This document shows positions 1 to 21,133 of a DNA stretch of 21,813 nucleotides, in pieces. Position 1 is the first letter of the stretch. Every line of letters starts with the position of its first letter. The position numbers and the translations under genes are program-made. The notes under the pieces were generated by a model. The model made no database searches. It was not told where the DNA came from and saw only the letters and a list, made by a program, of their open reading frames with translations. The DNA is from a virus (Duplodnaviria; Heunggongvirae; Uroviricota; Caudoviricetes). Where the stretch lies: IMG/VR virus record IMGVR_UViG_2563366926_000003. One strand, written 5' to 3'.

Positions 1-1284
1 TTACTTCTTCGCCTCTGCAACCACTTTGCTACCCACGCCGCGGTTATTGTATTCCCACATGCGGTTGTAGTTAGTGTCATTCAGATTGCGCTGTACTTCG
101 TCGTTATCATCAACGTTGCCAGTATTACCCGCAAACGGACGATTGGAAATCACCGCATCGGCCCACGGTTTCGCCGTGTTAAAACCTTCGTTGATGGCGC
201 TATCACGGATCACTACCTGACCGTTGGTATTGGCATCAACATCCAGCGAGCGGCCCAGTTGCGCCACGCCATCCCCGGAAGCATTGAAACGGCTGTTTAC
301 GGCGAGGAAACCGTAGTAAATGTTGGACAGCGTAGCCGGTGCAAACACATACGCTTCTTGCTGGGTACGGGAGTTCACCACGCGGAATTCGGTGTTATCG
401 AACACCACTGCGCCGCGACCAGAAACGATATCCACATCCCCTTCAATGTAGCTGTTAGTCACCAGGGTACGCGGCTGACGGTTGCTTTCCAGACGGTTTT
501 GCACACCGCTGTTGGTGACAAAGAAGGTATTCTGGCGACCGAGAATATTGACGTTATTGATCTGCACTTTGTCGCCATCAGTACGCAGTGCCACCGCCGG
601 ATGGTTACCCGCATCTACGCTATCGCCCAGTGTGTTTTCGATGGTCAGGTTTTGCAGTTGCAGGCCATTGTTTTGTGACCAGAAGACCGCAGAACAGAGC
701 ACGCCAATGCTGTCGCTGCGTTTGCTCTGGCAGCTATCGTACATATACCACGCTGGTTTACCCGGCATATATTTGCCGCGTGGGTTGACGTCGTGACGCC
801 AGTCGGCTGGGCTCATGCCCCCATCAAGGGAAAGCCCAATTTTCACATCAATCGGTTTTTCACCTGTACCGTACAGAGTAATTCCACCCGGAGCGGCAGG
901 GACATACACCGTTCCCTGATACTCACCAGGCATCACGGCAATATACTGGCGCTTGTTGGTACGCTTGATAATTGCCGCATCTACCGCCGCCTGAATCGTG
1001 GTATGCGTTACACCTTGAGTACCCGCCGGGCCGACAACAAAGTCAGGTTGTGCAGGCAGGGTAATCGGGGAAGGATTCCACGCTGCAGCACCTGGTGTCA
1101 GGGATGCAAAATAGTGTTGAGCATCGAAATTCTGCGCTTCTTTTGCCGACAGAATCGGGCGAGAAGAGGTACCAGGCGCGGTTTGATCAGAAGGACGTTG
1201 ATCGGGCGGTGTTGAGCTACAGGCGGTCAGCGTCACGCCAAAAGCCAATGCCAGCGCCAGACGGGAAACTGAAAATGTGTTCAC
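1..1284 (-). CDS. ybhC: Host lipoprotein YbhC (pectinesterase-like / acyl-CoA thioesterase family), flanking lambda attB
   Basis: Full 427-aa ORF with a lipoprotein signal peptide (lipobox LTAC); recognised as E. coli YbhC, the gene next to the lambda attachment site. Stop codon at window position 1-3. Confidence 0.85.
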   Translation of the reverse strand: MNTFSVSRLALALAFGVTLTACSSTPPDQRPSDQTAPGTSSRPILSAKEAQNFDAQHYFASLTPGAAAWNPSPITLPAQPDFVVGPAGTQGVTHTTIQAAVDAAIIKRTNKRQYIAVMPGEYQGTVYVPAAPGGITLYGTGEKPIDVKIGLSLDGGMSPADWRHDVNPRGKYMPGKPAWYMYDSCQSKRSDSIGVLCSAVFWSQNNGLQLQNLTIENTLGDSVDAGNHPAVALRTDGDKVQINNVNILGRQNTFFVTNSGVQNRLESNRQPRTLVTNSYIEGDVDIVSGRGAVVFDNTEFRVVNSRTQQEAYVFAPATLSNIYYGFLAVNSRFNASGDGVAQLGRSLDVDANTNGQVVIRDSAINEGFNTAKPWADAVISNRPFAGNTGNVDDNDEVQRNLNDTNYNRMWEYNNRGVGSKVVAEAKK

Positions 1285-8055: not shown

Positions 8056-8637
8056 ATGAACAACTCATGGTGGCAGGAACTAATGCATTTTTTCCTGCAA
8101 GGAATGACACTTAAACAGTTGATTCATATGCTAATCATCCTGATCATATTGATTATTGTTATGCCGGTAAGCGTAAAAGAATGGATAAACCTGCATAATC
8201 CAGAAATCCTTCCTCATTACTGGATGTATTACATCCTGTTGTTTTGCGTTAGCTATGTGCTTAACGGCGTTGTTAATTCCGCTTATCACGCTGTGACTGA
8301 AAGAATTGAGGTATTCGTTGCTCAGAAGCGCAAATCTAAAGAAGAAAAATATGTGCAAGATTTGTTTGATTCGTTAACTCTTGGAGAAAGAGCGTATTTG
8401 GCATTCGCTGTAGCCGCTAATAACCAGCTACAAACGGAAAAGGGAGCTCATGAATCAATTTCATTGCTCAAAAAAGGACTCCTCGTTCGAAGGCCTCCTG
8501 CTGTTGGATATCCTGATACCGACCGTTTTGTTATTCCTGAAAGCTATAGACATGAGTGCTACATTCGGTTTGCCGGGAAGGCAGACAGCCTTATGGATGA
8601 ACTTATCGCTCAGGATAAGCATGGCAAAAACAAGTAA
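8056..8637 (+). CDS. sieB: Superinfection exclusion protein B
   Basis: 193-aa ORF with N-terminal hydrophobic segments (LIHMLIILIILIIVMPV; YWMYYILLFCVSYVLNGVV); sits between ral and N, convergent with the pL operon, as sieB does in lambda and P22. Confidence 0.8.
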   Translation: MNNSWWQELMHFFLQGMTLKQLIHMLIILIILIIVMPVSVKEWINLHNPEILPHYWMYYILLFCVSYVLNGVVNSAYHAVTERIEVFVAQKRKSKEEKYVQDLFDSLTLGERAYLAFAVAANNQLQTEKGAHESISLLKKGLLVRRPPAVGYPDTDRFVIPESYRHECYIRFAGKADSLMDELIAQDKHGKNK

Positions 8638-8653
8638 TTAGCAAATGAATTTA

Positions 8654-8962
8654 TCATCTCGCCGTCAGTTGTTTTGATTTCCGGTAGCCTGCCGCGTAAA
8701 TAGCTACGTTTGGCAGGCAAACACTTCCACTGCATTCATCTACTTTCTTGCAGCGAAGGCTTCCGAGTGATATTGCTTTTTCAGAAAGGCTTAACCGCTT
8801 TCTCGGGTCTTCCTGAACAGGTTCCTCACTGTCTGTGCCGAAGATCGAATCGATGATGTTGCAGATGGAATCACGCTCGATGGCCAGCTTTCTGCGCCGC
8901 TCATGACGGCGAGTTTTGGCATTTCCTGCAAATGTTGATTTTCCGTACACGATTACCGTCAT
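8654..8962 (-). CDS. N-type transcription antiterminator, P22 gene 24-like (not lambda N)
   Basis: Internal start MTVIVYGKSTFAGNAKTRRHERRRKLAIERD... (102 aa) inside the 130-aa track ORF; arginine-rich N-terminal motif; recalled as similar to P22 gp24; lies downstream of a P22-type nutL. Confidence 0.8.
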   Translation of the reverse strand: MTVIVYGKSTFAGNAKTRRHERRRKLAIERDSICNIIDSIFGTDSEEPVQEDPRKRLSLSEKAISLGSLRCKKVDECSGSVCLPNVAIYAAGYRKSKQLTAR

Positions 8963-9080
8963 GATGTTTTCCTCATGTGAAATGGCTTTGGTGGTGATGC
9001 GCCAGATGCTGATCTTCTGGTTGCTGTCGTTACTGCTGCAATTCACATCACCCCAAACCCATCTCGTTTGGTATCTGTTC

Positions 9081-9114
9081 GCGCTTTGTCAGCGCATCAT
9101 CGAAGTTAAAGAGC
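9081..9114 (-). promoter_or_regulatory. nutL (boxA + boxB), P22 specificity
   Basis: Minus-strand reading gctctttaa (boxA-like, consensus CGCTCTTTA) ... gcgctgacaaagcgc (boxB hairpin; 5-bp stem, 5-nt loop); matches the P22 nutL boxB as recalled; about 120 nt upstream of N. Confidence 0.7.
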
Positions 9115-9371
9115 CTGCCAATCTGTTCCGTTTGGCTGCCAGCGTCCTGCTGATGGCGATGATAATGAACCAATAGTTCGATATTATCAAGAACTATAAG
9201 TACGAATTGTTTGTGGCTCATTAACTTAATGAGATATGTTTTTGATATGTAAAGGAATTTATTTTTGTAAAGATTGAAGATTGGTCAGTAGGAGAGAAAG
9301 AATTGTTTGCTGGCGTGTTAGTTCGTGGGTTAGCACATGTGCGGATGTTAAATAAGGTAGACGATCGTGAG

Positions 9372-9398
9372 GAAAAGAAAAACCGGCGCTGAGGCCGG
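9372..9398 (-). terminator. Terminator ending the leftward cI-ORF299 transcript
   Basis: GC hairpin ccggc-gctgag-gccgg (9383-9398) followed on the minus strand by a T-run (plus-strand gaaaagaaaaa); sits just after the ORF299 stop. Confidence 0.5.
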
Positions 9399-9404
9399 GT
9401 ATAA

Positions 9405-10304
9405 TTATTTGATTATTTCTTTTATAAAGACTTCTTTCGGTTGGTATTTTTTATCTGATGATTTGAGCTGGTACGTTATTGTTATATCAGCACGTACAGC
9501 AAATTTACCTGCAAAATCTGATGGGTTTACGTTGGGGCCAAGAACCATATTTACTCTTCGATCTATTAATCCAGGGATAACAGCAGCCCAACCTTTCTCT
9601 GGATTGTCGAGGTCTAATGCACGGATTTCAACATCAACATCAAAATGATCCTGAGTATATGACTCTGGTGTGAAGACAACTTCAGTTGGGGCTTTTTTAA
9701 TGGTTTCAGCGGGAATGGTCACTGTACCACCCCCTGTACCTATGACCATCGTAGATCCTTCGTCTGCCCTAGCTGGGGCAAGCGTCTTAATGGAACTTTT
9801 GGCAAGAGTCTTCTTATTGGTTACCGTGCTTTCTATGATTGCTTGAAGACGGTCAGGTGAAATATTAGCCTCACCGGCACCAATATTGATGATTGTATTG
9901 TTATTTGCTTCAAAGTGGGAGGTGTTGCTTGGAGCCATAGCCTTAGTTGCTAGAACTAAGCCATATCCAACCAGACCAATAACAACAGCACCAACGAGAG
10001 CGTTTCTCATTTTCCCATTTCCGATCTTTGCATGAGCGCCAGCAAGAAACTTGTCCATTTCTTCTTGGCTACCAAAGAGGAGTTTAATAACAATATCTTC
10101 ATAAAGGCTTCCTGCTTCTAATCGCGCAACATGCACCGATATATCAAGGATATTAGCCCCTGTCAGTTCCTGCAAAACACCTTCTGATTGTTTTGCGATG
10201 GCCTCCCACCCTTGAAGGGAGGTAATCACATCTTTGATGCTTACAGGTTCTTTAGTTGAATAATATATGTTTTCGGTAAAGGTTAAAGATAATTCTTGGG
10301 ACAT
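9405..10304 (-). CDS. Hypothetical membrane-anchored protein (one central TM helix) in the rexAB position of the immunity region; candidate superinfection-exclusion / abortive-infection gene
   Basis: 299-aa ORF with a good RBS (gaggg, 6 nt upstream of the ATG), co-oriented with and 130 bp downstream of cI; central hydrophobic helix ALVGAVVIGLVGYGLVLATKAMA; visibly more AT-rich than the lambda backbone; no family recognised. Confidence 0.7.
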   Translation of the reverse strand: MSQELSLTFTENIYYSTKEPVSIKDVITSLQGWEAIAKQSEGVLQELTGANILDISVHVARLEAGSLYEDIVIKLLFGSQEEMDKFLAGAHAKIGNGKMRNALVGAVVIGLVGYGLVLATKAMAPSNTSHFEANNNTIINIGAGEANISPDRLQAIIESTVTNKKTLAKSSIKTLAPARADEGSTMVIGTGGGTVTIPAETIKKAPTEVVFTPESYTQDHFDVDVEIRALDLDNPEKGWAAVIPGLIDRRVNMVLGPNVNPSDFAGKFAVRADITITYQLKSSDKKYQPKEVFIKEIIK

Positions 10305-10433
10305 CCGAGCCCTCGCTGTTTCTTTCGATTTGCTGTGTTAAGCTAATATTTTAATATCCATGTTTCTGTTTGCTTGCAGTGTGTTTCTCACCACCATCCA
10401 AACGTACTGGTTACTAGCTATGTGATGATGAAG

Positions 10434-11141
10434 TCATGAACTTTTCAGCCATTCCCTGGCCTCGATGTCATCTAGGTGGCGAGATTGCTTCAGAATACCA
10501 GCTACATACTCCACCTTTGCTACTTGATGATAAGGCAACGTTATTGGCCTGTGGTCTTGGTTGATGCTTGTAAATTGGTATTCTCCGTCTCTGTCATAGC
10601 CAAGAACCTTGATCATGTTGTGCCCTTCAATGGTTCTGACAAACACCTCATCACCTGGGAATACTTTGGTGTTAGGCTCAATGAGTACATATTCTCCTGA
10701 TTTTATTCTGGGCCACATGCTGTCTCCTTTTACACGAAGACCAAAGGCATCTGGATCATCGCTATAAATCTTGAGCCACCCATCGCGCTCTTCGGTCATC
10801 TCGATGGCACCATCAACACCAAGAATTGCCTCACCAACCACGCGCACTAACCCTTTTTTTAATTTGCCAACAATTGAAAAAGTATCTTCATCATTCGCTC
10901 CATTTAACGAAGTGCCGTGCTGAAGCCAAACAACATCAACGTTTAGAAATTTCGCAAGCGCATTCATTTTTTCCTGGCGTGGTAAAGACTCAGCATTAAA
11001 CCATTTGCTAACGCCTTTGGACGAAAGAGAAAGGGCACGGGCTATGGCCATTCCCCTACCATGTTCATCAAGACCAGCTTCTTTACAGGCTTGCGCTAGC
11101 CGCTGGGCGAATTCTTTGCGCACTTTTTCATTCTGAACCAT
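10434..11141 (-). CDS. cI: CI-type prophage repressor (N-terminal HTH, C-terminal S24 LexA-like autopeptidase); non-lambda immunity
   Basis: 235-aa ORF; C-terminal domain carries the S24 catalytic motif (GDSMWPRI ... MIKVL) for RecA-stimulated autocleavage; divergent from cro across an operator region; no SD upstream, so possibly leaderless like lambda cI from pRM. Confidence 0.88.
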   Translation of the reverse strand: MVQNEKVRKEFAQRLAQACKEAGLDEHGRGMAIARALSLSSKGVSKWFNAESLPRQEKMNALAKFLNVDVVWLQHGTSLNGANDEDTFSIVGKLKKGLVRVVGEAILGVDGAIEMTEERDGWLKIYSDDPDAFGLRVKGDSMWPRIKSGEYVLIEPNTKVFPGDEVFVRTIEGHNMIKVLGYDRDGEYQFTSINQDHRPITLPYHQVAKVEYVAGILKQSRHLDDIEAREWLKSS

Positions 11142-11219
11142 GAGTACGATACTAAAGCACTTGCAAAAACTTTCAGTTCAACCATAATGCGTACTGAAAG
11201 TACGAAAAAGGACATTCCT
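11142..11219. promoter_or_regulatory. OR / pR-pRM divergent control region
   Basis: Candidate pR: TTGCAA (11161-11166), 16-bp spacer, CATAAT (11183-11188); a 15-bp near-palindrome cgtactgaaagtacg (11190-11204) overlaps the predicted +1 as a candidate operator; cro RBS aaggac follows. Confidence 0.55.
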
Positions 11220-13722: not shown

Positions 13723-16700
13723 ATGACCACTGTGAATAAAAAGTTAAAAAAAACTGCATCTGGCGCGATTACATGGTCAGTAATTGTTACCCAGATATTA
13801 TCTCCAGTTTCTCTTTCTTTGATTCCGGCAAACAGTTTTGCATCGTCTGATAATAAAGATGTTACGCAAATTTATGCTAGCGATGAGCGTGCAAATAAAG
13901 TGGCCTCATTTGCAGTAAGTGCAGGTCAGAGTCTGGCGAATAATAATGCAAGTAGTTTTGCTGTAAATACTTTATCAACTCAGGCGACAAAAGAGGTCGT
14001 CGATTGGTTGCAACAATATGGCAATGCGCGCATCAAGCTTAATGTCGATAATTCTTTTTCCTTGAAGGATTCATCATTCGACTTTTTATATCCATGGCTG
14101 GATACTCAGGATTATGTGCTATTCAGTCAAACATCACTACATCGTACTGATGACCGTAATCAGACCAATATTGGTTTGGGGATTCGTCATTTCACTCCTG
14201 ATAATGCAATGTTGGGTGCGAATGTTTTCTACGATTATGATTTAAGTCGCAGCCACTCTCGCGCAGGTTTTGGGGTTGAGTACTGGAGAGATTATTTCAG
14301 GCTTGGTGTAAATACCTATTTTGGTTTATCTGACTGGAAGGACAGTCGGGATATTGATGATTATCTGGAAAGACCCGCAAATGGCTGGGATTTTTCTGCT
14401 GAAGGATGGCTACCTGCTTATCCGCAATTAGGGGCATCTATTCAGTTTGAAAAATATTATGGTAAAAATGTCGGATTATTTGGAAGCGATAATCTGCAGG
14501 AAAACCCTTACGCAGTTACTGGGGGAATTTCTTATACACCAGTTCCTCTGATTAAGTTTTCTGCACAGCATAAGCAAGGACAGAGCAACGTTCACGATAC
14601 AACCTTTGGTGTTGAGTTTAATTACCGCCCAGGCGTTTCCCTTGCTGAACAGCTTAGCAGTGACAATGTTGCAGTTATGCGAGAAGTCCAGAACCGGCGT
14701 TATGATTTTGTTGAACGAAATAACAACATTGTTCTGGAGTACAAGAAGAAGCATGCACTGAAAATCAGCTTACCAGAGTCTGTTCAGGGGGATGGCGAAT
14801 CAATCATCCCTGTAACACTGACAATCAACAATGCCAGTGGTGGTATCAAGTCTGTACAGTGGAATGATAGTGTATTCACTGCGGCTGGCGGTAAGATCAG
14901 TGGAAATGGCACATCATGGCAGGTCACTTTACCGGCTTATAAAAGCGAAGGTGTAAATTCGTGGAATGTTGGAGCCACGGTCCAGGATAATAGAGGCAAC
15001 GTTTCCAACTATGCGGTGATGAATATTAGCGTTATCAATAGTGGTGTCTCGACAGCGGATTCTTCTTTTATGTTGGATGGAGATTCATCTCCGACGATCT
15101 CTGCTGATGGTCAATCCACTCATCCAATAGTATTAAGCCTGAAAGACAGTAACGGTAAGGCATTAACCGGACTGGCTGATGACATTGAAATGTCAGTGGA
15201 ATTTACTGCGGATAGCAATAGTGCTCGACAGCGTGAAACGGTAACTGCCCCGTCATTAGGCGCGGTAGAGGAAATCTCTGCTGGTGTATATCGCTCTGTT
15301 CTGACTGCTGGTTCGCAGGCTGGCACAGTACGTGTAACAGCAAAAGTTCAGGGAAAAACCTTTACTTTGAATATTAAGCAGGCAGCCGTTATTGATAGTG
15401 ATGTCTCGACAGCGGATTCTTCTTTTACGTTGGATGGTGATTCGTCTCCGACGATCTCTGCTGATGGTCAATCCACTCATCCAATAGTATTAAGCCTGAA
15501 AGACAGTAACGGTAAGGCATTAACCGGACTGGCTGATGACATTGAAATGTCAGTGGAATTTACTGCGGATAGCAATAGTGCTCGACAGCGTGAAACGGTA
15601 ACTGCCCCGTCATTAGGCGCGGTAGAGGAAATCTCTGCTGGTGTATATCGCTCTGTTCTGACTGCTGGTTCGCAGGCTGGTACGGTACGTGTAACTGCAA
15701 AAGTAATGGATAAAACATTTACTCTCAGTATTAAGCAAACAGCAGCAACAGAACCTGATTCTGAGGTCAGTGCTGTTTTAACCGCTGCACCAGCAGAACA
15801 GGTAGTTGGTTACAATATCAATCTACAACTGGCAGTGAAGGATTCACAAGGAAATGCAATCACTGGTGATAACACTCTGAGCTTTTATGCTCTTAACCAG
15901 GCAGAAGGAGTCGAGTTTGGGGCTGTAACGGAAAAAGACGGTGTCTATAGCGCGACAGTAACTTCAAAACGAGCTGGTAAGATTCGGATCGGTGTTAAAT
16001 CGGGTAGTCACAATTTCTCAGGTATTGAGAAAGAAATCTCCTTTATTGAAGATCGAACACAGTTCGCATTCTCTCGTATTGAAGCCAGTAAAAATAATGC
16101 ATTGGCTGACGGCAAACAACAGAATACGGTGACTTTAAGCCTTGCAGATCGTTTCGGCAATGTTGTGCCCGGTTATGCTGTTACGCTGTCCTTACCTGCG
16201 GGGGTAACTCAAGTTGGTGGTGAACATGCTGTGTCAACTGACGAAAACGGTAATGCTGTTTTTGCGTTAATAAGCTCCACTCCGGGTTCTTACGTGATTA
16301 AAGCTCATGCTGGTTCTCAGATGTCTACTGAGTTAACAGTAACCTTTGCATCAAATATGATCGGAGCTTCACTGTCACTGACGCCTGGAAACAGTAGCTT
16401 AATTTCCAATATTCCTGCTAATGGTAAGGATGCTGCGGTATTGAATGTGCAACTGACAAATACGAATGCGTCGGTCAATGGACAGAAGATTCAGCTCATC
16501 ACCTCATCTGAAAGATTGTCTGTACCGACAAATATCGTGACTGATTCAACAGGGCATGTTTCCGTACCACTTACAACGGTGAGAGCTGGTGAGTATACGG
16601 TGGCTGCACGAGTGACTGACGGTTCCCATAGTGTGGAGTCTGGCAGCGTTAAGTTAACTTTTGTACCAGATGCTGCTTCCGCAGAACTTACTATGAGTAC

Positions 16701-17631
16701 ATCAAAACAGCAGATTGTGGCCGATGGTAGTGAAAGTGCAACAGTGGACATTCAGTTGGTTGATGCCAATAACAATGCGTTTACAGGCGATGTGGATTTA
16801 ACGGTTACACCATCGACGGGAGCATCATTGACCAGTAGTAAACTGCAGTTGGATGCTCATGGACAGGCAACAACGCAGTTCACAGCATCGAAATCAGGCC
16901 AGTACACAATTCAGGCTGAGTATGTTCTAGATGGGAAACGTATAACCGCAAGCAAAAATATTGATGCCGTGACGGATGTGAAGGAGGCTGTGTTGGAGAT
17001 CACATCATCTGCATCTTCGGCTGTAGTGAGCGATACCAACAATCTGATATTTACGTTACTGTTGAAAAGTACGTCAGGCGAAGTATTAAGTGGTCGAGTA
17101 TTGAATATCAAGGCATCTGGGCCGTCCAAATATGGTGCGTTGGTGGTTGATAAAACCACTGTAACGACTGATGAGTATGGTCTGGCTACGGTAAGCGTAC
17201 ATGGTCGAACGGCTGGTTCGTATAAATTAACGGCGACCTTAGATGAACTTGGCAGTGATGTTAGTGAGGTGAAGTCATTCTCTCTGTATGCTGATGAGGC
17301 AAATGGAGTATTGACACTGCATAAAGATGGAGGCTATGACACAGATGATGGTACTCCAGTGGGGGTTTATGCCCGATTTGTTGACCATTTCGGCAATCCG
17401 TTATCTGGTACGGTTGAGTTTTCTGCTGGTAGTGAAGATAGTCCAAACTCTCAACGGGTTAAAATGGAGCCTGCTACAGTAACGTTACACTGGACAGGTA
17501 ATGCAGCCTCGGAGTTCAGCACCTATGAAAGCGGTTATCACTGGATTAAGGCCAAAATAACGAACAGCAAAAATACATATGAGAAAACAATAAGGACTTA
17601 TGTTGTAAAGCTCCCTGAAAAGGATAGTTAA
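13723..17631 (+). CDS. Inverse autotransporter adhesin of the intimin/invasin family (signal peptide, outer-membrane beta-barrel, tandem bacterial Ig-like domains)
   Basis: 1302-aa ORF; N-terminal signal-like segment; residues ~100-340 resemble the intimin/invasin beta-barrel translocator (GIRHFTPDN...GFGVEYWRDYFRLGVNTYFG...FGVEFNYRPGV); the C-terminal ~950 aa is a series of repeated ~100-120-aa Ig-like modules including two near-identical copies; preceded by ~240 bp of very AT-rich DNA and followed by a strong terminator. Confidence 0.85.
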   Translation: MTTVNKKLKKTASGAITWSVIVTQILSPVSLSLIPANSFASSDNKDVTQIYASDERANKVASFAVSAGQSLANNNASSFAVNTLSTQATKEVVDWLQQYGNARIKLNVDNSFSLKDSSFDFLYPWLDTQDYVLFSQTSLHRTDDRNQTNIGLGIRHFTPDNAMLGANVFYDYDLSRSHSRAGFGVEYWRDYFRLGVNTYFGLSDWKDSRDIDDYLERPANGWDFSAEGWLPAYPQLGASIQFEKYYGKNVGLFGSDNLQENPYAVTGGISYTPVPLIKFSAQHKQGQSNVHDTTFGVEFNYRPGVSLAEQLSSDNVAVMREVQNRRYDFVERNNNIVLEYKKKHALKISLPESVQGDGESIIPVTLTINNASGGIKSVQWNDSVFTAAGGKISGNGTSWQVTLPAYKSEGVNSWNVGATVQDNRGNVSNYAVMNISVINSGVSTADSSFMLDGDSSPTISADGQSTHPIVLSLKDSNGKALTGLADDIEMSVEFTADSNSARQRETVTAPSLGAVEEISAGVYRSVLTAGSQAGTVRVTAKVQGKTFTLNIKQAAVIDSDVSTADSSFTLDGDSSPTISADGQSTHPIVLSLKDSNGKALTGLADDIEMSVEFTADSNSARQRETVTAPSLGAVEEISAGVYRSVLTAGSQAGTVRVTAKVMDKTFTLSIKQTAATEPDSEVSAVLTAAPAEQVVGYNINLQLAVKDSQGNAITGDNTLSFYALNQAEGVEFGAVTEKDGVYSATVTSKRAGKIRIGVKSGSHNFSGIEKEISFIEDRTQFAFSRIEASKNNALADGKQQNTVTLSLADRFGNVVPGYAVTLSLPAGVTQVGGEHAVSTDENGNAVFALISSTPGSYVIKAHAGSQMSTELTVTFASNMIGASLSLTPGNSSLISNIPANGKDAAVLNVQLTNTNASVNGQKIQLITSSERLSVPTNIVTDSTGHVSVPLTTVRAGEYTVAARVTDGSHSVESGSVKLTFVPDAASAELTMSTSKQQIVADGSESATVDIQLVDANNNAFTGDVDLTVTPSTGASLTSSKLQLDAHGQATTQFTASKSGQYTIQAEYVLDGKRITASKNIDAVTDVKEAVLEITSSASSAVVSDTNNLIFTLLLKSTSGEVLSGRVLNIKASGPSKYGALVVDKTTVTTDEYGLATVSVHGRTAGSYKLTATLDELGSDVSEVKSFSLYADEANGVLTLHKDGGYDTDDGTPVGVYARFVDHFGNPLSGTVEFSAGSEDSPNSQRVKMEPATVTLHWTGNAASEFSTYESGYHWIKAKITNSKNTYEKTIRTYVVKLPEKDS
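15030..15743 (+). repeat. Near-identical 357-bp (119-codon) in-frame tandem duplication inside the adhesin gene
   Basis: The unit starting gtctcgacagcggattcttctttt occurs at 15046 and again at 15403 (period 357 bp); the central ~280 bp differ at only a handful of positions; encodes VSTADSSF.LDGDSSPTISADGQSTHPIVLSLKDSNGKALTGLADDIEMSVEFTADSNSARQRETVTAPSLGAVEEISAGVYRSVLTAGSQAGTVRVTAKV twice. Confidence 0.92.
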
Positions 17632-17643
17632 CAAAACAGAATA

Positions 17644-17670
17644 GGGAGGGCTAAGCCCTCCCACTTTTTA
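17644..17670 (+). terminator. Rho-independent terminator of the adhesin gene
   Basis: Perfect 8-bp GC-rich stem gggagggc / gccctccc with loop taa, followed by acttttta. Confidence 0.8.
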
Positions 17671-18153
17671 ATTGAGACGGACTGTTTCTTAAATTCACTT
17701 ACGTTAGATATGAACTGGTTATTTTTTATAACAATAAAAGACTTTTGATTTTTGAATATCAGTAAGTAATAATGATTTACGTCGACAGACTGAACATCTG
17801 TTGGTGACTTCTGCGCTAAACGGGGACGTTTATGCGCACATACAATCTAAACTCTCTTCTCTCTTCACAGATGCAGAAATGCACCTGCGATTCTTTGCAT
17901 CCAACGTTTGACCTCTGCGGAGGTGAAGCGTGAACCTCCCACAAGATGGCATCAAATTACATCGCGGTAACTTCACCGCTATCGGTCGGCAGATCCAGCC
18001 TTATCTGGAGGACGGCAAATGCTTTCGCATGGTGCTTAAACCGTGGCGCGAGAGACGCAGTCTAGACTGGCCCCCTGAATCTCCAGACAACCAGTATCAC
18101 TTAAATAAGTGATAGTCTTAATACTAGTTTTTAGACTAGTCATTGGAGAACAG

Positions 18154-18519
18154 ATGATTGATGTCTTAGGGCCGGAGAAACGCAGACGGCGTACCACACA
18201 GGAAAAGATCGCAATTGTTCAGCAGAGCTTTGAACCGGGGATGACGGTCTCCCTCGTTGCCCGGCAACATGGTGTAGCAGCCAGCCAGTTATTTCTCTGG
18301 CGTAAGCAATACCAGGAAGGAAGTCTTACTGCTGTCGCCGCCGGAGAACAGGTTGTTCCTGCCTCTGAACTTGCTGCCGCCATGAAGCAGATTAAAGAAC
18401 TCCAGCGCCTGCTCGGCAAGAAAACGATGGAAAATGAACTCCTCAAAGAAGCCGTTGAATATGGACGGGCAAAAAAGTGGATAGCGCACGCGCCCTTATT
18501 GCCCGGGGATGGGGAGTAA
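18154..18519 (+). CDS. insC: IS2 OrfA (InsC) transposase regulatory/DNA-binding subunit
   Basis: 121-aa frame [56 protein letters not shown]... with RBS ggagaa; recognised as IS2 InsC. Confidence 0.93.
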
Positions 18520-19382
18520 GCTTAGTCAGCCGTTGTCTCCGGGTGTCGCGTGCGCAGTTGCACGTCATTCTCAGACGAACCGATGACTGGATGGATGGCC
18601 GCCGCAGTCGTCACACTGATGATACGGATGTGCTTCTCCGTATACACCATGTTATCGGAGAGCTGCCCACGTATGGTTATCGTCGGGTATGGGCGCTGCT
18701 TCGCAGACAGGCAGAACTTGATGGTATGCCTGCGATCAATGCCAAACGTGTTTACCGGATCATGCGCCAGAATGCGCTGTTGCTTGAGCGAAAACCTGCT
18801 GTACCGCCATCGAAACGGGCACATACAGGCAGAGTGGCCGTGAAAGAAAGCAATCAGCGATGGTGCTCTGACGGGTTCGAGTTCTGCTGTGATAACGGAG
18901 AGAGACTGCGTGTCACGTTCGCGCTGGACTGCTGTGATCGTGAGGCACTGCACTGGGCGGTCACTACCGGCGGCTTCAACAGTGAAACAGTACAGGACGT
19001 CATGCTGGGAGCGGTGGAACGCCGCTTCGGCAACGATCTTCCGTCGTCTCCACTGGAGTGGCTGACGGATAATGGTTCATGCTACCGGGCTAATGAAACA
19101 CGCCAGTTCGCCCGGATGTTGGGACTTGAACCGAAGAACACGGCGGTGCGGAGTCCGGAGAGTAACGGAATAGCAGAGAGCTTCGTGAAAACGATAAAGC
19201 GTGACTACATCAGTATCATGCCCAAACCAGACGGGTTAACGGCAGCAAAGAACCTTGCAGAGGCGTTCGAGCATTATAACGAATGGCATCCGCATAGTGC
19301 GCTGGGTTATCGCTCGCCACGGGAATATCTGCGGCAGCGGGCTTGTAATGGGTTAAGTGATAACAGATGTCTGGAAATATAG
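18477..19382 (+). CDS. insD: IS2 OrfB (InsD) transposase catalytic domain (DDE); expressed as an OrfAB fusion by -1 frameshifting
   Basis: 301-aa ORF recognised as IS2 InsD; slippery A6G motif (aaaaaag, 18470-18476) at the orfA/orfB overlap. Confidence 0.93.
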
Positions 19383-19720
19383 GGGCAAATCCACAGTCTT
19401 TCCCAGAATGCACTCAGCCACATGTGGTACAGCGAAATCAGTGAATACCTCATCAGCAGGGGTAAAACGTTCGCCACTCCAGCTTGGGTAAAAGATGCTC
19501 TCAAACACACATATCTCGGTTATGAAACCAAAGACCTGGTTGATGTCGTAACCGGTGATATCACCACTATCCAGTCGTTACGCCATACCTCCGACCTTGA
19601 TACCGGAGAGATGTATGTCTTCCTGTGTAAGGTTGAAGCCTGGGCGATGAATATTGGCTGCCACCTGACTATTCCGCAGAGCTGCGAGTTCCAGCTGCTG
19701 CGTGATAAGCAGGAGGCGTA

Positions 19721-20670: not shown

Positions 20671-20755
20671 AGTCAGAGATAACAATCAACTAATACTGTT
20701 TTGTTGATTTTTGCTTGTAATTGGCGTTCTGGTCTGAGTTTTGTGGAGTAAGTTG

Positions 20756-21133
20756 ATGCGTGATATTCAGATGGTTCTTGAGCGTTGGGGAGCGTGGGCG
20801 GCTAATAATCATGAAGATGTGACCTGGTCGTCCATTGCCGCCGGTTTTAAGGGATTAATTCCTTCAAAAGTAAAATCTCGCCCGCAATGTTGTGACGATG
20901 ACGCGATGATCATTTGCGGGTGCATGGCCCGTCTGAAAAAGAACAACAGCGATTTGCATGATTTATTGGTGGACTATTATGTCGGCGGCATGACTTTTAT
21001 GGCGCTTGCACGTAAGCATGGGCGATCTGATTGTTGGGTTGGCAGGATGCTCCAGAAAGCTGAGGGCGTAGTGGAGGGTATGCTGATGGTGTTGGATCTC
21101 CGATTGGAGATGGATGCTGATTGTTCGAAATAA
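20756..21133 (+). CDS. quuD: Q late-gene antiterminator, phage 82 / DLP12 QuuD type
   Basis: 125-aa frame [81 protein letters not shown]... (ATG at 20756 with RBS ggag; the track ORF starts at an upstream TTG); recognised as the phage-82 Q family. Confidence 0.9.

Follow-up and report, generated by a model that had tools for sequence, protein, structure and literature searches.

A repressor-linked, predicted inner-membrane protein in the rexAB slot of a lambdoid phage as a candidate prophage exclusion gene

We analyzed the 21,813-nucleotide (nt) Caudoviricetes record IMGVR_UViG_2563366926_000003, hereafter referred to as the window, with a focus on ORF299, an open reading frame (ORF) of 299 amino acids (aa) that occupies the slot of lambda's rexAB, between cI and pL/oL and co-oriented with cI. 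Judged from its sequence and genomic setting, ORF299 probably has some anti-phage function, and we tentatively propose that it is a lysogen-expressed moron that may block the genome entry of superinfecting phages at the inner membrane. The protein family and its combination of folds are new to annotation; a repressor-linked exclusion gene in a prophage is, as a kind, well known. In this region, the DNA shares 99.9-100% identity with Escherichia phage 1H12 and the 'Lambda_ev' phages (genus Jouyvirus), and identical prophages carrying the ORF299 product (WP_000076839.1) were found in 150 of 5,426 complete E. coli genomes.

ORF299 takes the place of rexAB in the immunity region

The elements follow one another as in lambda (N, pL/oL, cargo, cI, oR, cro), with ORF299 in place of rexB-rexA, and the genes cro, cII, O and P follow cI on the opposite strand. 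The rexAB-slot assignment made in an earlier, model-generated account of this DNA (the sequence-only reading) therefore holds. The elements of the slot and its borders are listed below, with positions counted from the first letter of the window.

8654-8962, minus strand: N, target of the pL-like promoter
9162..9203, minus strand: pL-like promoter TTGATA-17-CATTAT (9190..9162) and adjoining operator-like GAACTATAAGTAC (9191-9203), left limit of the immunity region
9373..9398, minus strand: intrinsic terminator closing the presumed cI-ORF299 transcript (5-base-pair GC stem, 6-nt loop, U-tract)
9405..10304, minus strand: ORF299 coding sequence, 299 aa plus stop, ATG start (RefSeq WP_000076839.1; gp50 of phage 1H12, 'hypothetical protein')
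10305..10433, minus strand: cI-ORF299 spacer, 129 nt from the cI stop to the ORF299 start
10310..10314, minus strand: Shine-Dalgarno GAGGG, 5 nt before the ORF299 ATG, read from the sequence
10434..11141, minus strand: cI repressor (HTH_3 and Peptidase_S24), upstream gene of the presumed operon
11161..11203, plus strand: pR-like promoter TTGCAA-16-CATAAT and oR palindrome GTACTGAAAGTAC (11191-11203)

The operator-like GAACTATAAGTAC beside pL resembles the oR palindrome GTACTGAAAGTAC, which is located between cI and cro. Across the window, this palindrome pattern was not enriched (7 matches vs 9.8 expected), and the oL assignment, made because the site adjoins the pL-like promoter, rests on position and not on statistics. 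Homology with other lambdoid N leaders stops at about 9157. Between N and pL, opposite the pL leader/nutL, lies an ORF annotated as 'hypothetical protein' (8964-9176, plus strand) that is probably no real gene.

The 299-aa ORF with a good ribosome-binding site described in the sequence-only reading was recovered with its ATG start and the GAGGG element listed above. Compared with orthologues in Edwardsiella hoshinae and Kluyvera ascorbata, its ratio of non-synonymous to synonymous substitution rates (dN/dS) was 0.09 and 0.05, respectively. Given these ratios and the large set of homologues returned by profile searches (see below), ORF299 is a genuine gene subject to purifying selection, not an ORF that arose by chance.

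Past the ORF299 stop, the terminator-like hairpin at 9398..9373 (minus strand) reads CCGGC-CTCAGC-GCCGG, then TTTTTCTTTT, with a folding energy of -9.1 kcal/mol. The same hairpin, at 89-95% identity, also closes the slot in prophages with other cargo (loci L040 and L042, and phage H-19B), so that the terminator that had been assigned to ORF299 as its own is present and is equally a property of the slot. The hairpin at 9373-9398 may represent the left recombination anchor of the hotspot.

The guanine-plus-cytosine (GC) content of ORF299 is 41.3%, compared with 45.3% for cI, 48.6% for N and 46.0% for the whole window, and its GC at third codon positions is 32.7% vs 41.5% for cI. Two nearby genes, cro (42.1%) and the sieB-like gene next to N (40.5%), are nonetheless equally AT-rich. 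The earlier description of ORF299 as visibly more AT-rich than its flanks is thus correct with respect to cI, N and the window and fails for these two genes, and the argument from composition to recent acquisition is weak.

In the spacer between cI and ORF299 (10305-10433, minus strand), a site scan detected no terminator-like site and no consensus sigma-70 promoter, and the RNA-fold z-score of 0.08 indicates no unusual structure. A weak -10-like element (TAAAAT) was seen there by eye, and weak or non-consensus promoters are possible. Because the spacer shows no terminator, promoter or unusual structure in these analyses, we infer that ORF299 is co-transcribed with cI from pRM/pRE, and its product would hence be present in the prophage state. 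During lysogeny, few prophage promoters are more active than that of the repressor (PMC8585504).

A mobile cassette in a slot that elsewhere carries known or candidate anti-phage genes

ORF299 travels as a cassette of about 1 kb that consists of the ribosome-binding site, the ORF and the terminator, without a recognizable promoter. Its extent was taken from the span of DNA homology with the Edwardsiella and Kluyvera loci.

9371..10366, minus strand: mobile cassette (ribosome-binding site, ORF299, terminator), ~1 kb

Window positions 10346..9371 match the Edwardsiella locus at 95% identity and 10366..9378 match the Kluyvera locus at 90%, with upstream repressors at the two loci that are only 18-34% identical to the cI found here. 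Among prophages that share cI, DNA homology ends sharply 18-28 nt past the cI stop (10406-10416) and restarts at about 9400-9415, at the terminator. The same or a near-identical cI (WP_000250470/473) was found in other E. coli prophages with different slot cargo (L040, L041 and L042), and phage H-19B shares just the 3' part of cI (~94-95% identity, window 10406 to 10887). A survey of what other prophages carry between cI and pL, as the sequence-only reading had proposed, returned BstA, a Stk-like kinase with PDC-S43, PDC-M66A/B and a PD-Lambda-2-like pair.

L041, E. coli OkiPb01707: 300-aa protein, PADLOC BstA (E=4e-106)
L040: HipA-family kinase and DUF3037 protein, PDC-M66A/B candidates
L042: DUF3024 protein, IS1 and Ser/Thr kinase (Stk-like), PDC-S43; PD-T4-6/mad6 models (E=1e-37 to 1e-50)
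L014, phage H-19B: HigB/HigA-like pair, PD-Lambda-2 A/B match

All four alternative cargos found match known or candidate anti-phage models. ORF299 is present or absent among otherwise near-identical prophages, in which the same cI and cro occur with other cargos. Of the features that define a moron (sensu Hendrix and colleagues), ORF299 thus shows presence or absence among related phages, and also a terminator, though one common to the other cargo variants. The Stk exclusion kinase of 933W, which Friedman and colleagues described in 2011, is reportedly also located in the cI-N slot. Owen et al. 2021 (PMC8585504) describe the interval between cI and N as an established mosaic hotspot in which rexAB and bstA are found. 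Together, this slot context lends circumstantial support to a defence role for ORF299.

A large family linked to unrelated repressors

ORF299 belongs to PHROG 4506 (residues 1-299 on profile positions 1-300 of 300, E=1.9e-170), which is annotated as 'unknown function', so that membership says nothing about mechanism. An exhaustive profile search recovered 664 cluster representatives at 50% identity (E<=1e-3), including 547 with E<=1e-10, and nearly all of these 664 proteins are about 300 aa long and match end to end; a word-indexed search returned 55 clusters.

We examined 73 loci drawn from reference genomes, IMG/VR and assemblies. A helix-turn-helix (HTH) or repressor-type protein was encoded within three co-oriented upstream genes at 17 of the first 34 loci, and across these 34 loci no conserved partner gene was detected besides the repressor, which indicates that ORF299 is a single-gene unit. 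At 49 dereplicated loci, the nearest co-oriented upstream ORF matched HTH_3 in 20, Peptidase_S24 in 19 and Phage_CI_repr in 8, which makes it a repressor of the cI/LexA type in at least 20, and repressors of unrelated sequence lie directly upstream and co-oriented in approximately 40-50% of the dereplicated loci. Even homologues with just 24% identity, in Pseudomonas phages D14C, U7 and U9, are still found downstream of cI. Other homologues also occupy places typical of phage cargo: between Q and holin (on the late strand in L011, against the late operon in L012), after the primase of a P4-like satellite (Serratia fonticola, L008), and inside Mu-like elements, either beside a lysozyme gene or ahead of a Mu-type protease. 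The hosts comprise Enterobacterales, Pseudomonas, Cupriavidus, Nitrosomonas, Zoogloea, Accumulibacter, Methylocaldum and one Desulfuromonadales metagenome-assembled genome, and this wide range makes a trait specific to one host niche unlikely.

Two of these loci hold further genes of interest. In the P4-like satellite (L008, 8194-12909), three large ORFs with no Pfam match on record (847, 598 and 824+ aa) are located downstream of the ORF299 homologue; the 847- and 598-aa ORFs, the only two tested, had no PADLOC match, and the three could be further satellite cargo. In Leptolyngbya phage Lsp-JY19 (L045, 3281-4279), which encodes a DDE-type transposase, a 332-aa protein encoded just before a lysozyme gene is 33% identical to residues 220-298 of ORF299, in the C-terminal barrel.

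Predicted architecture and topology

The AlphaFold2 model of ORF299, built from 34 sequences, reached a mean predicted local distance difference test (pLDDT) score of 83.8 and a predicted template modeling (pTM) score of 0.68. It comprises, in order, an N-domain (residues 5-94), a membrane helix (101-123), a helical region (125-179), two short strands and a five-strand barrel (215-297). The corresponding segments of the gene are as follows.

10008..10304, minus strand: residues 1-99, N-terminal alpha/beta domain (strand-helix-strand-strand-helix), predicted cytoplasmic (AlphaFold2 pLDDT 73-92; positive-inside rule)
9933..10001, minus strand: residues 102-124 (ALVGAVVIGLVGYGLVLATKAMA), single transmembrane helix (hydropathy, AlphaFold2 model, homologues)
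9870..9908, minus strand: residues 133-145, juxtamembrane motif ANNNTIINIGAGE, the most conserved stretch among closer homologues
9408..9662, minus strand: residues 215-299, C-terminal five-strand small beta-barrel with the IRAxDxD...GWA motif (R228, D231, D233, G238, W239) and R250, conserved family-wide

Residues 102-124 hold the best 19-residue Kyte-Doolittle mean (2.24) and no second hydrophobic segment was found, in agreement with the single central helix between two soluble domains that had been noticed before. Of 187 homologues, 164 have one strong hydrophobic helix. Positive charge is greater on the N-side in 161 of the 187, with a mean of 3.16 Lys+Arg in the 15 residues before the helix and 1.12 in those after it. 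On the basis of this positive-inside bias, ORF299 is predicted to be an inner-membrane protein with N-in/C-out topology, with a cytoplasmic portion of about 100 aa and a periplasmic one of about 175 aa (a helical stalk and the small beta-barrel).

Among closer homologues, the motif at 133-145 is nearly invariant, and A133, N134, N136, I139, G142, A143 and G144 are fully so. Family-wide, P206 and W239 are invariant, and at least 90% of the sequences retain L30, G65, S66, F77, P177, A229, D231, D233, G238 and R250. Conservation is even across both soluble domains. As to catalytic-type residues, no conserved His, Cys or Ser was detected (S66 nevertheless being among the residues kept in at least 90%), and an enzyme therefore appears unlikely.

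Searches for known relatives and comparison with known systems

For ORF299, Pfam returned no family above threshold (best DUF1206, 16.9 bits vs a cut-off of 26.2 bits) and NCBIfam no match, and PADLOC also stayed below threshold. The earlier statement that no family is recognizable therefore stands, the unannotated PHROG 4506 being the only assignment. A search of 119 diverse family members against Pfam gave scattered noise only (ApeA_NTD1 and PycTM in 1-2 members, E ~0.003-0.007), and searches of PDB sequences with profiles of 34 and 119 sequences gave nothing below E=0.3. With the AlphaFold2 model, Foldseek returned only unnamed proteins from BFVD, and its sole PDB matches, to M16 peptidases, were unusable (TM-score <=0.22). 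Clear homology to a characterized non-defence protein, which the sequence-only reading had named as a result that would speak against a defence role, was thus found neither in the profile searches nor with Foldseek against PDB and BFVD.

Homology to the exclusion proteins known from this slot was rejected. Using RexA (279 aa) and RexB (144 aa) as comparators, hhalign gave probabilities of 0.1% and 0.5%, respectively, the latter for the membrane segment only; these values, both below 1%, agree with the earlier impression that ORF299 looks nothing like either protein. Likewise, comparison with a bona fide BstA (PADLOC E=4e-106) yielded a BLASTP E of 3.5 and an hhalign probability of 0.2%. The new systems of the P4-hotspot paper bear no resemblance to ORF299, and the Fc02 exclusion genes encode unrelated small proteins. 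In the literature, no paper or supplementary table naming WP_000076839 or phrog_4506 was found; the Brenes & Laub 2025 screen was not covered by this search, and an earlier discovery is possible.

ORF299 nevertheless shares several traits with known systems. Like lambda RexA/RexB, it lies between cI and oL/pL on the cI strand, is presumably read from the repressor promoter, ends at a closing terminator and includes a membrane component. RexAB differs in having two genes, for a small multi-pass membrane protein (RexB) and a soluble protein (RexA), whereas ORF299 is one gene with one helix between two soluble domains; as the single ORF in its slot, it does not provide the two components, sensor and membrane effector, of RexAB. 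BstA is closer in form: it is a protein of about 300 aa from a one-gene unit with its own terminator, which many Gram-negatives carry immediately after a prophage repressor gene, and E. coli OkiPb01707, with a near-identical cI, has it in this very slot. However, BstA acts at phage DNA replication sites (PMC8585504), whereas ORF299 is predicted to be membrane-anchored and has no PADLOC BstA match.

PdpSau is a prophage-encoded single membrane-anchored protein from a holin-adjacent cargo slot that causes membrane permeabilization and abortive infection (PMC10127798). It shares with ORF299 the form of a single membrane-anchored accessory protein in a prophage cargo slot, but belongs to prophages of Staphylococcus aureus (Gram-positive), has an N-terminal membrane helix and a cytoplasmic C-terminus, and shows no detected homology. 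Another set of comparators acts in exclusion: HK97 gp15 and T4 Imm are inner-membrane superinfection-exclusion proteins. P22 SieA acts in inner-membrane superinfection exclusion at the genome-delivery step (PMC10883804). This class of prophage-expressed, non-enzymatic inner-membrane proteins that act on genome delivery may serve as a working model for ORF299. ORF299 has no sequence relationship to these proteins, and its only PHROG matches are to families of unknown function. It is also larger than they are, with two sizeable soluble domains, and occurs in many bacterial classes.

Possible functions of ORF299

According to our preferred but tentative reading, ORF299 would be a non-enzymatic, single-span inner-membrane protein made in the lysogen, whose periplasmic part might interfere with the genome delivery of an incoming phage in the manner of P22 SieA or HK97 gp15. 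Such an entry block would need no self-immunity on induction of the resident prophage, which fits a cassette that hops between lambdoid phages, Mu-like elements, Pseudomonas phages and a P4-like satellite. Because no self-immunity would be needed and the larger part of the protein is predicted to be periplasmic, we slightly favor an entry block over membrane-based abortive infection.

Several observations weigh against this reading. None of the 5027 models of PADLOC-DB 2.0.0 matched ORF299 at E<=1, an accession search of the DefensePredictor supplementary tables did not find it, and outside prophages only one of 10 large neighbors matches PADLOC, a weak link to defence islands. Both lysogen expression and an anti-phage effect are presumed from the genomic context, and the N-in/C-out topology is a prediction. 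Conservation of the cytoplasmic N-domain equals that of the periplasmic part, although a simple blocker in the periplasm would have no need for it. Known superinfection-exclusion proteins are usually narrow and phage-specific; the family of ORF299 is uniform across beta-, gamma- and delta-proteobacteria. Moreover, the characterized cargo of the slot (RexAB, BstA, Stk) acts mostly by abortive infection and not by blocking entry. The proposal of a candidate defence gene in the sequence-only reading thus gains circumstantial support from the slot cargo, the repressor linkage and the other cargo slots, and is tempered by the absence of ORF299 from PADLOC and the DefensePredictor supplements.

A role outside defence, in lysogenic conversion or prophage maintenance, appears somewhat unlikely. 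ORF299 would then be an envelope protein that alters host physiology (stress tolerance, transport or envelope signaling), or a membrane-tethered regulator of lysogeny or induction. Genes on a repressor transcript need not be defence genes, and the same phage has host-physiology cargo (lipocalin Blc-like, YbgA-like and Bor-like); the even conservation of both soluble domains across distant hosts further suggests conserved host partners and not fast-evolving phage targets. However, the match of four out of four alternative slot cargos to defence models points the other way, and the family is found not only in enterics but also in free-living nitrifiers, Accumulibacter, Zoogloea and Methylocaldum, which makes a host-niche trait improbable. 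Placements in Q-holin slots, in the late region of Mu-like elements and in a P4-like satellite speak against a function tied to repressor regulation.

Membrane-based abortive infection, a near competitor of the entry block, is in our estimation unlikely. The protein would be inert in the lysogen until a soluble domain senses a phage, whereupon it would oligomerize through the helix and the Asn-rich motif and the inner membrane would be depolarized or permeabilized, so that the cell dies before phage release; the analogy with RexB or PdpSau would be one of function, not of sequence. Among the characterized cargo of the slot, the abortive type prevails (rexAB and bstA (PMC8585504), and Stk-like/PD-T4-6 kinases), and PdpSau offers a precedent (PMC10127798), some ORF299 homologues also being in a holin-adjacent slot. 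In the protein itself, a single Gly/Ala-rich helix is followed by the strongly conserved polar motif ANNNxIINIGAGE at the membrane surface, and the conserved cytoplasmic domain could serve as a sensor or regulator. Yet a pore formed from one helix per subunit requires high-order oligomerization, and a generic trigger would kill the carrier phage on induction, although the cassette moves among very different phages. No partner, antitoxin or self-immunity element is visible, with no conserved neighbor but the repressor; an aba-like element was not searched for.

We regard as rather doubtful a broader alternative, in which ORF299 would found a widespread and so far unrecognized class of anti-phage systems that consist of one protein (at a clustering level of 50% identity, at least 660 clusters in prophages of beta-, gamma- and delta-proteobacteria), with transmembrane sensing of phage entry by one polypeptide that has a single membrane span and no detectable structural relatives. 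The periplasmic beta-barrel would sense the genome-delivery apparatus, and the signal might pass to the conserved cytoplasmic domain or lead to oligomerization into a lethal pore.

Very improbable, finally, is an accessory role in the lytic cycle (a modulator of lysis timing or of the membrane, incidentally placed behind cI), since homologues do occur near lysis genes (between Q and holin on the late strand in L011, next to lysozyme genes in Mu-like elements, and ahead of a Mu-type protease) but the L012 gene is oriented against the late operon, about half of the loci are co-oriented with the repressor, which is off during lytic growth, and presence or absence among near-identical prophages shows the gene to be dispensable for lytic growth.

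Other features of the phage

A SieB-like superinfection-exclusion gene adjoins N (8056-8637, plus strand) and constitutes a second candidate exclusion function of this phage, with no PADLOC match. The Q-to-holin interval (window 16495-19544) is a further cargo slot and holds three accessory genes.

16651-17175, minus strand: lipocalin Blc-like
17368-18327, plus strand: YbgA-like
18646-19377, plus strand: 243-aa hypothetical protein

A gene for a Bor-like outer-membrane lipoprotein (20747-21040, minus strand) follows the spanin gene, as in lambda. At the other end, positions 1-296 (minus strand) correspond to a stretch annotated in phage 1H12 as the end of SitA, the periplasmic binding protein of a Mn/Fe ABC transporter, and could be cargo or carried-over host DNA.

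Implications

Exclusion systems such as rexAB, bstA and stk have demonstrably come from the interval between repressor and pL of lambdoid prophages, and ORF299 is one of the frequent occupants of this interval. If ORF299 does not act in defence, it is still a conserved, lysogen-linked envelope protein. Should it prove to be anti-phage, prophage-encoded immunity would gain a new protein family and probably also a new mechanism at the level of the envelope, and ORF299 would matter when the susceptibility to phages of clinical lysogens of E. coli, Salmonella and Pseudomonas is predicted.

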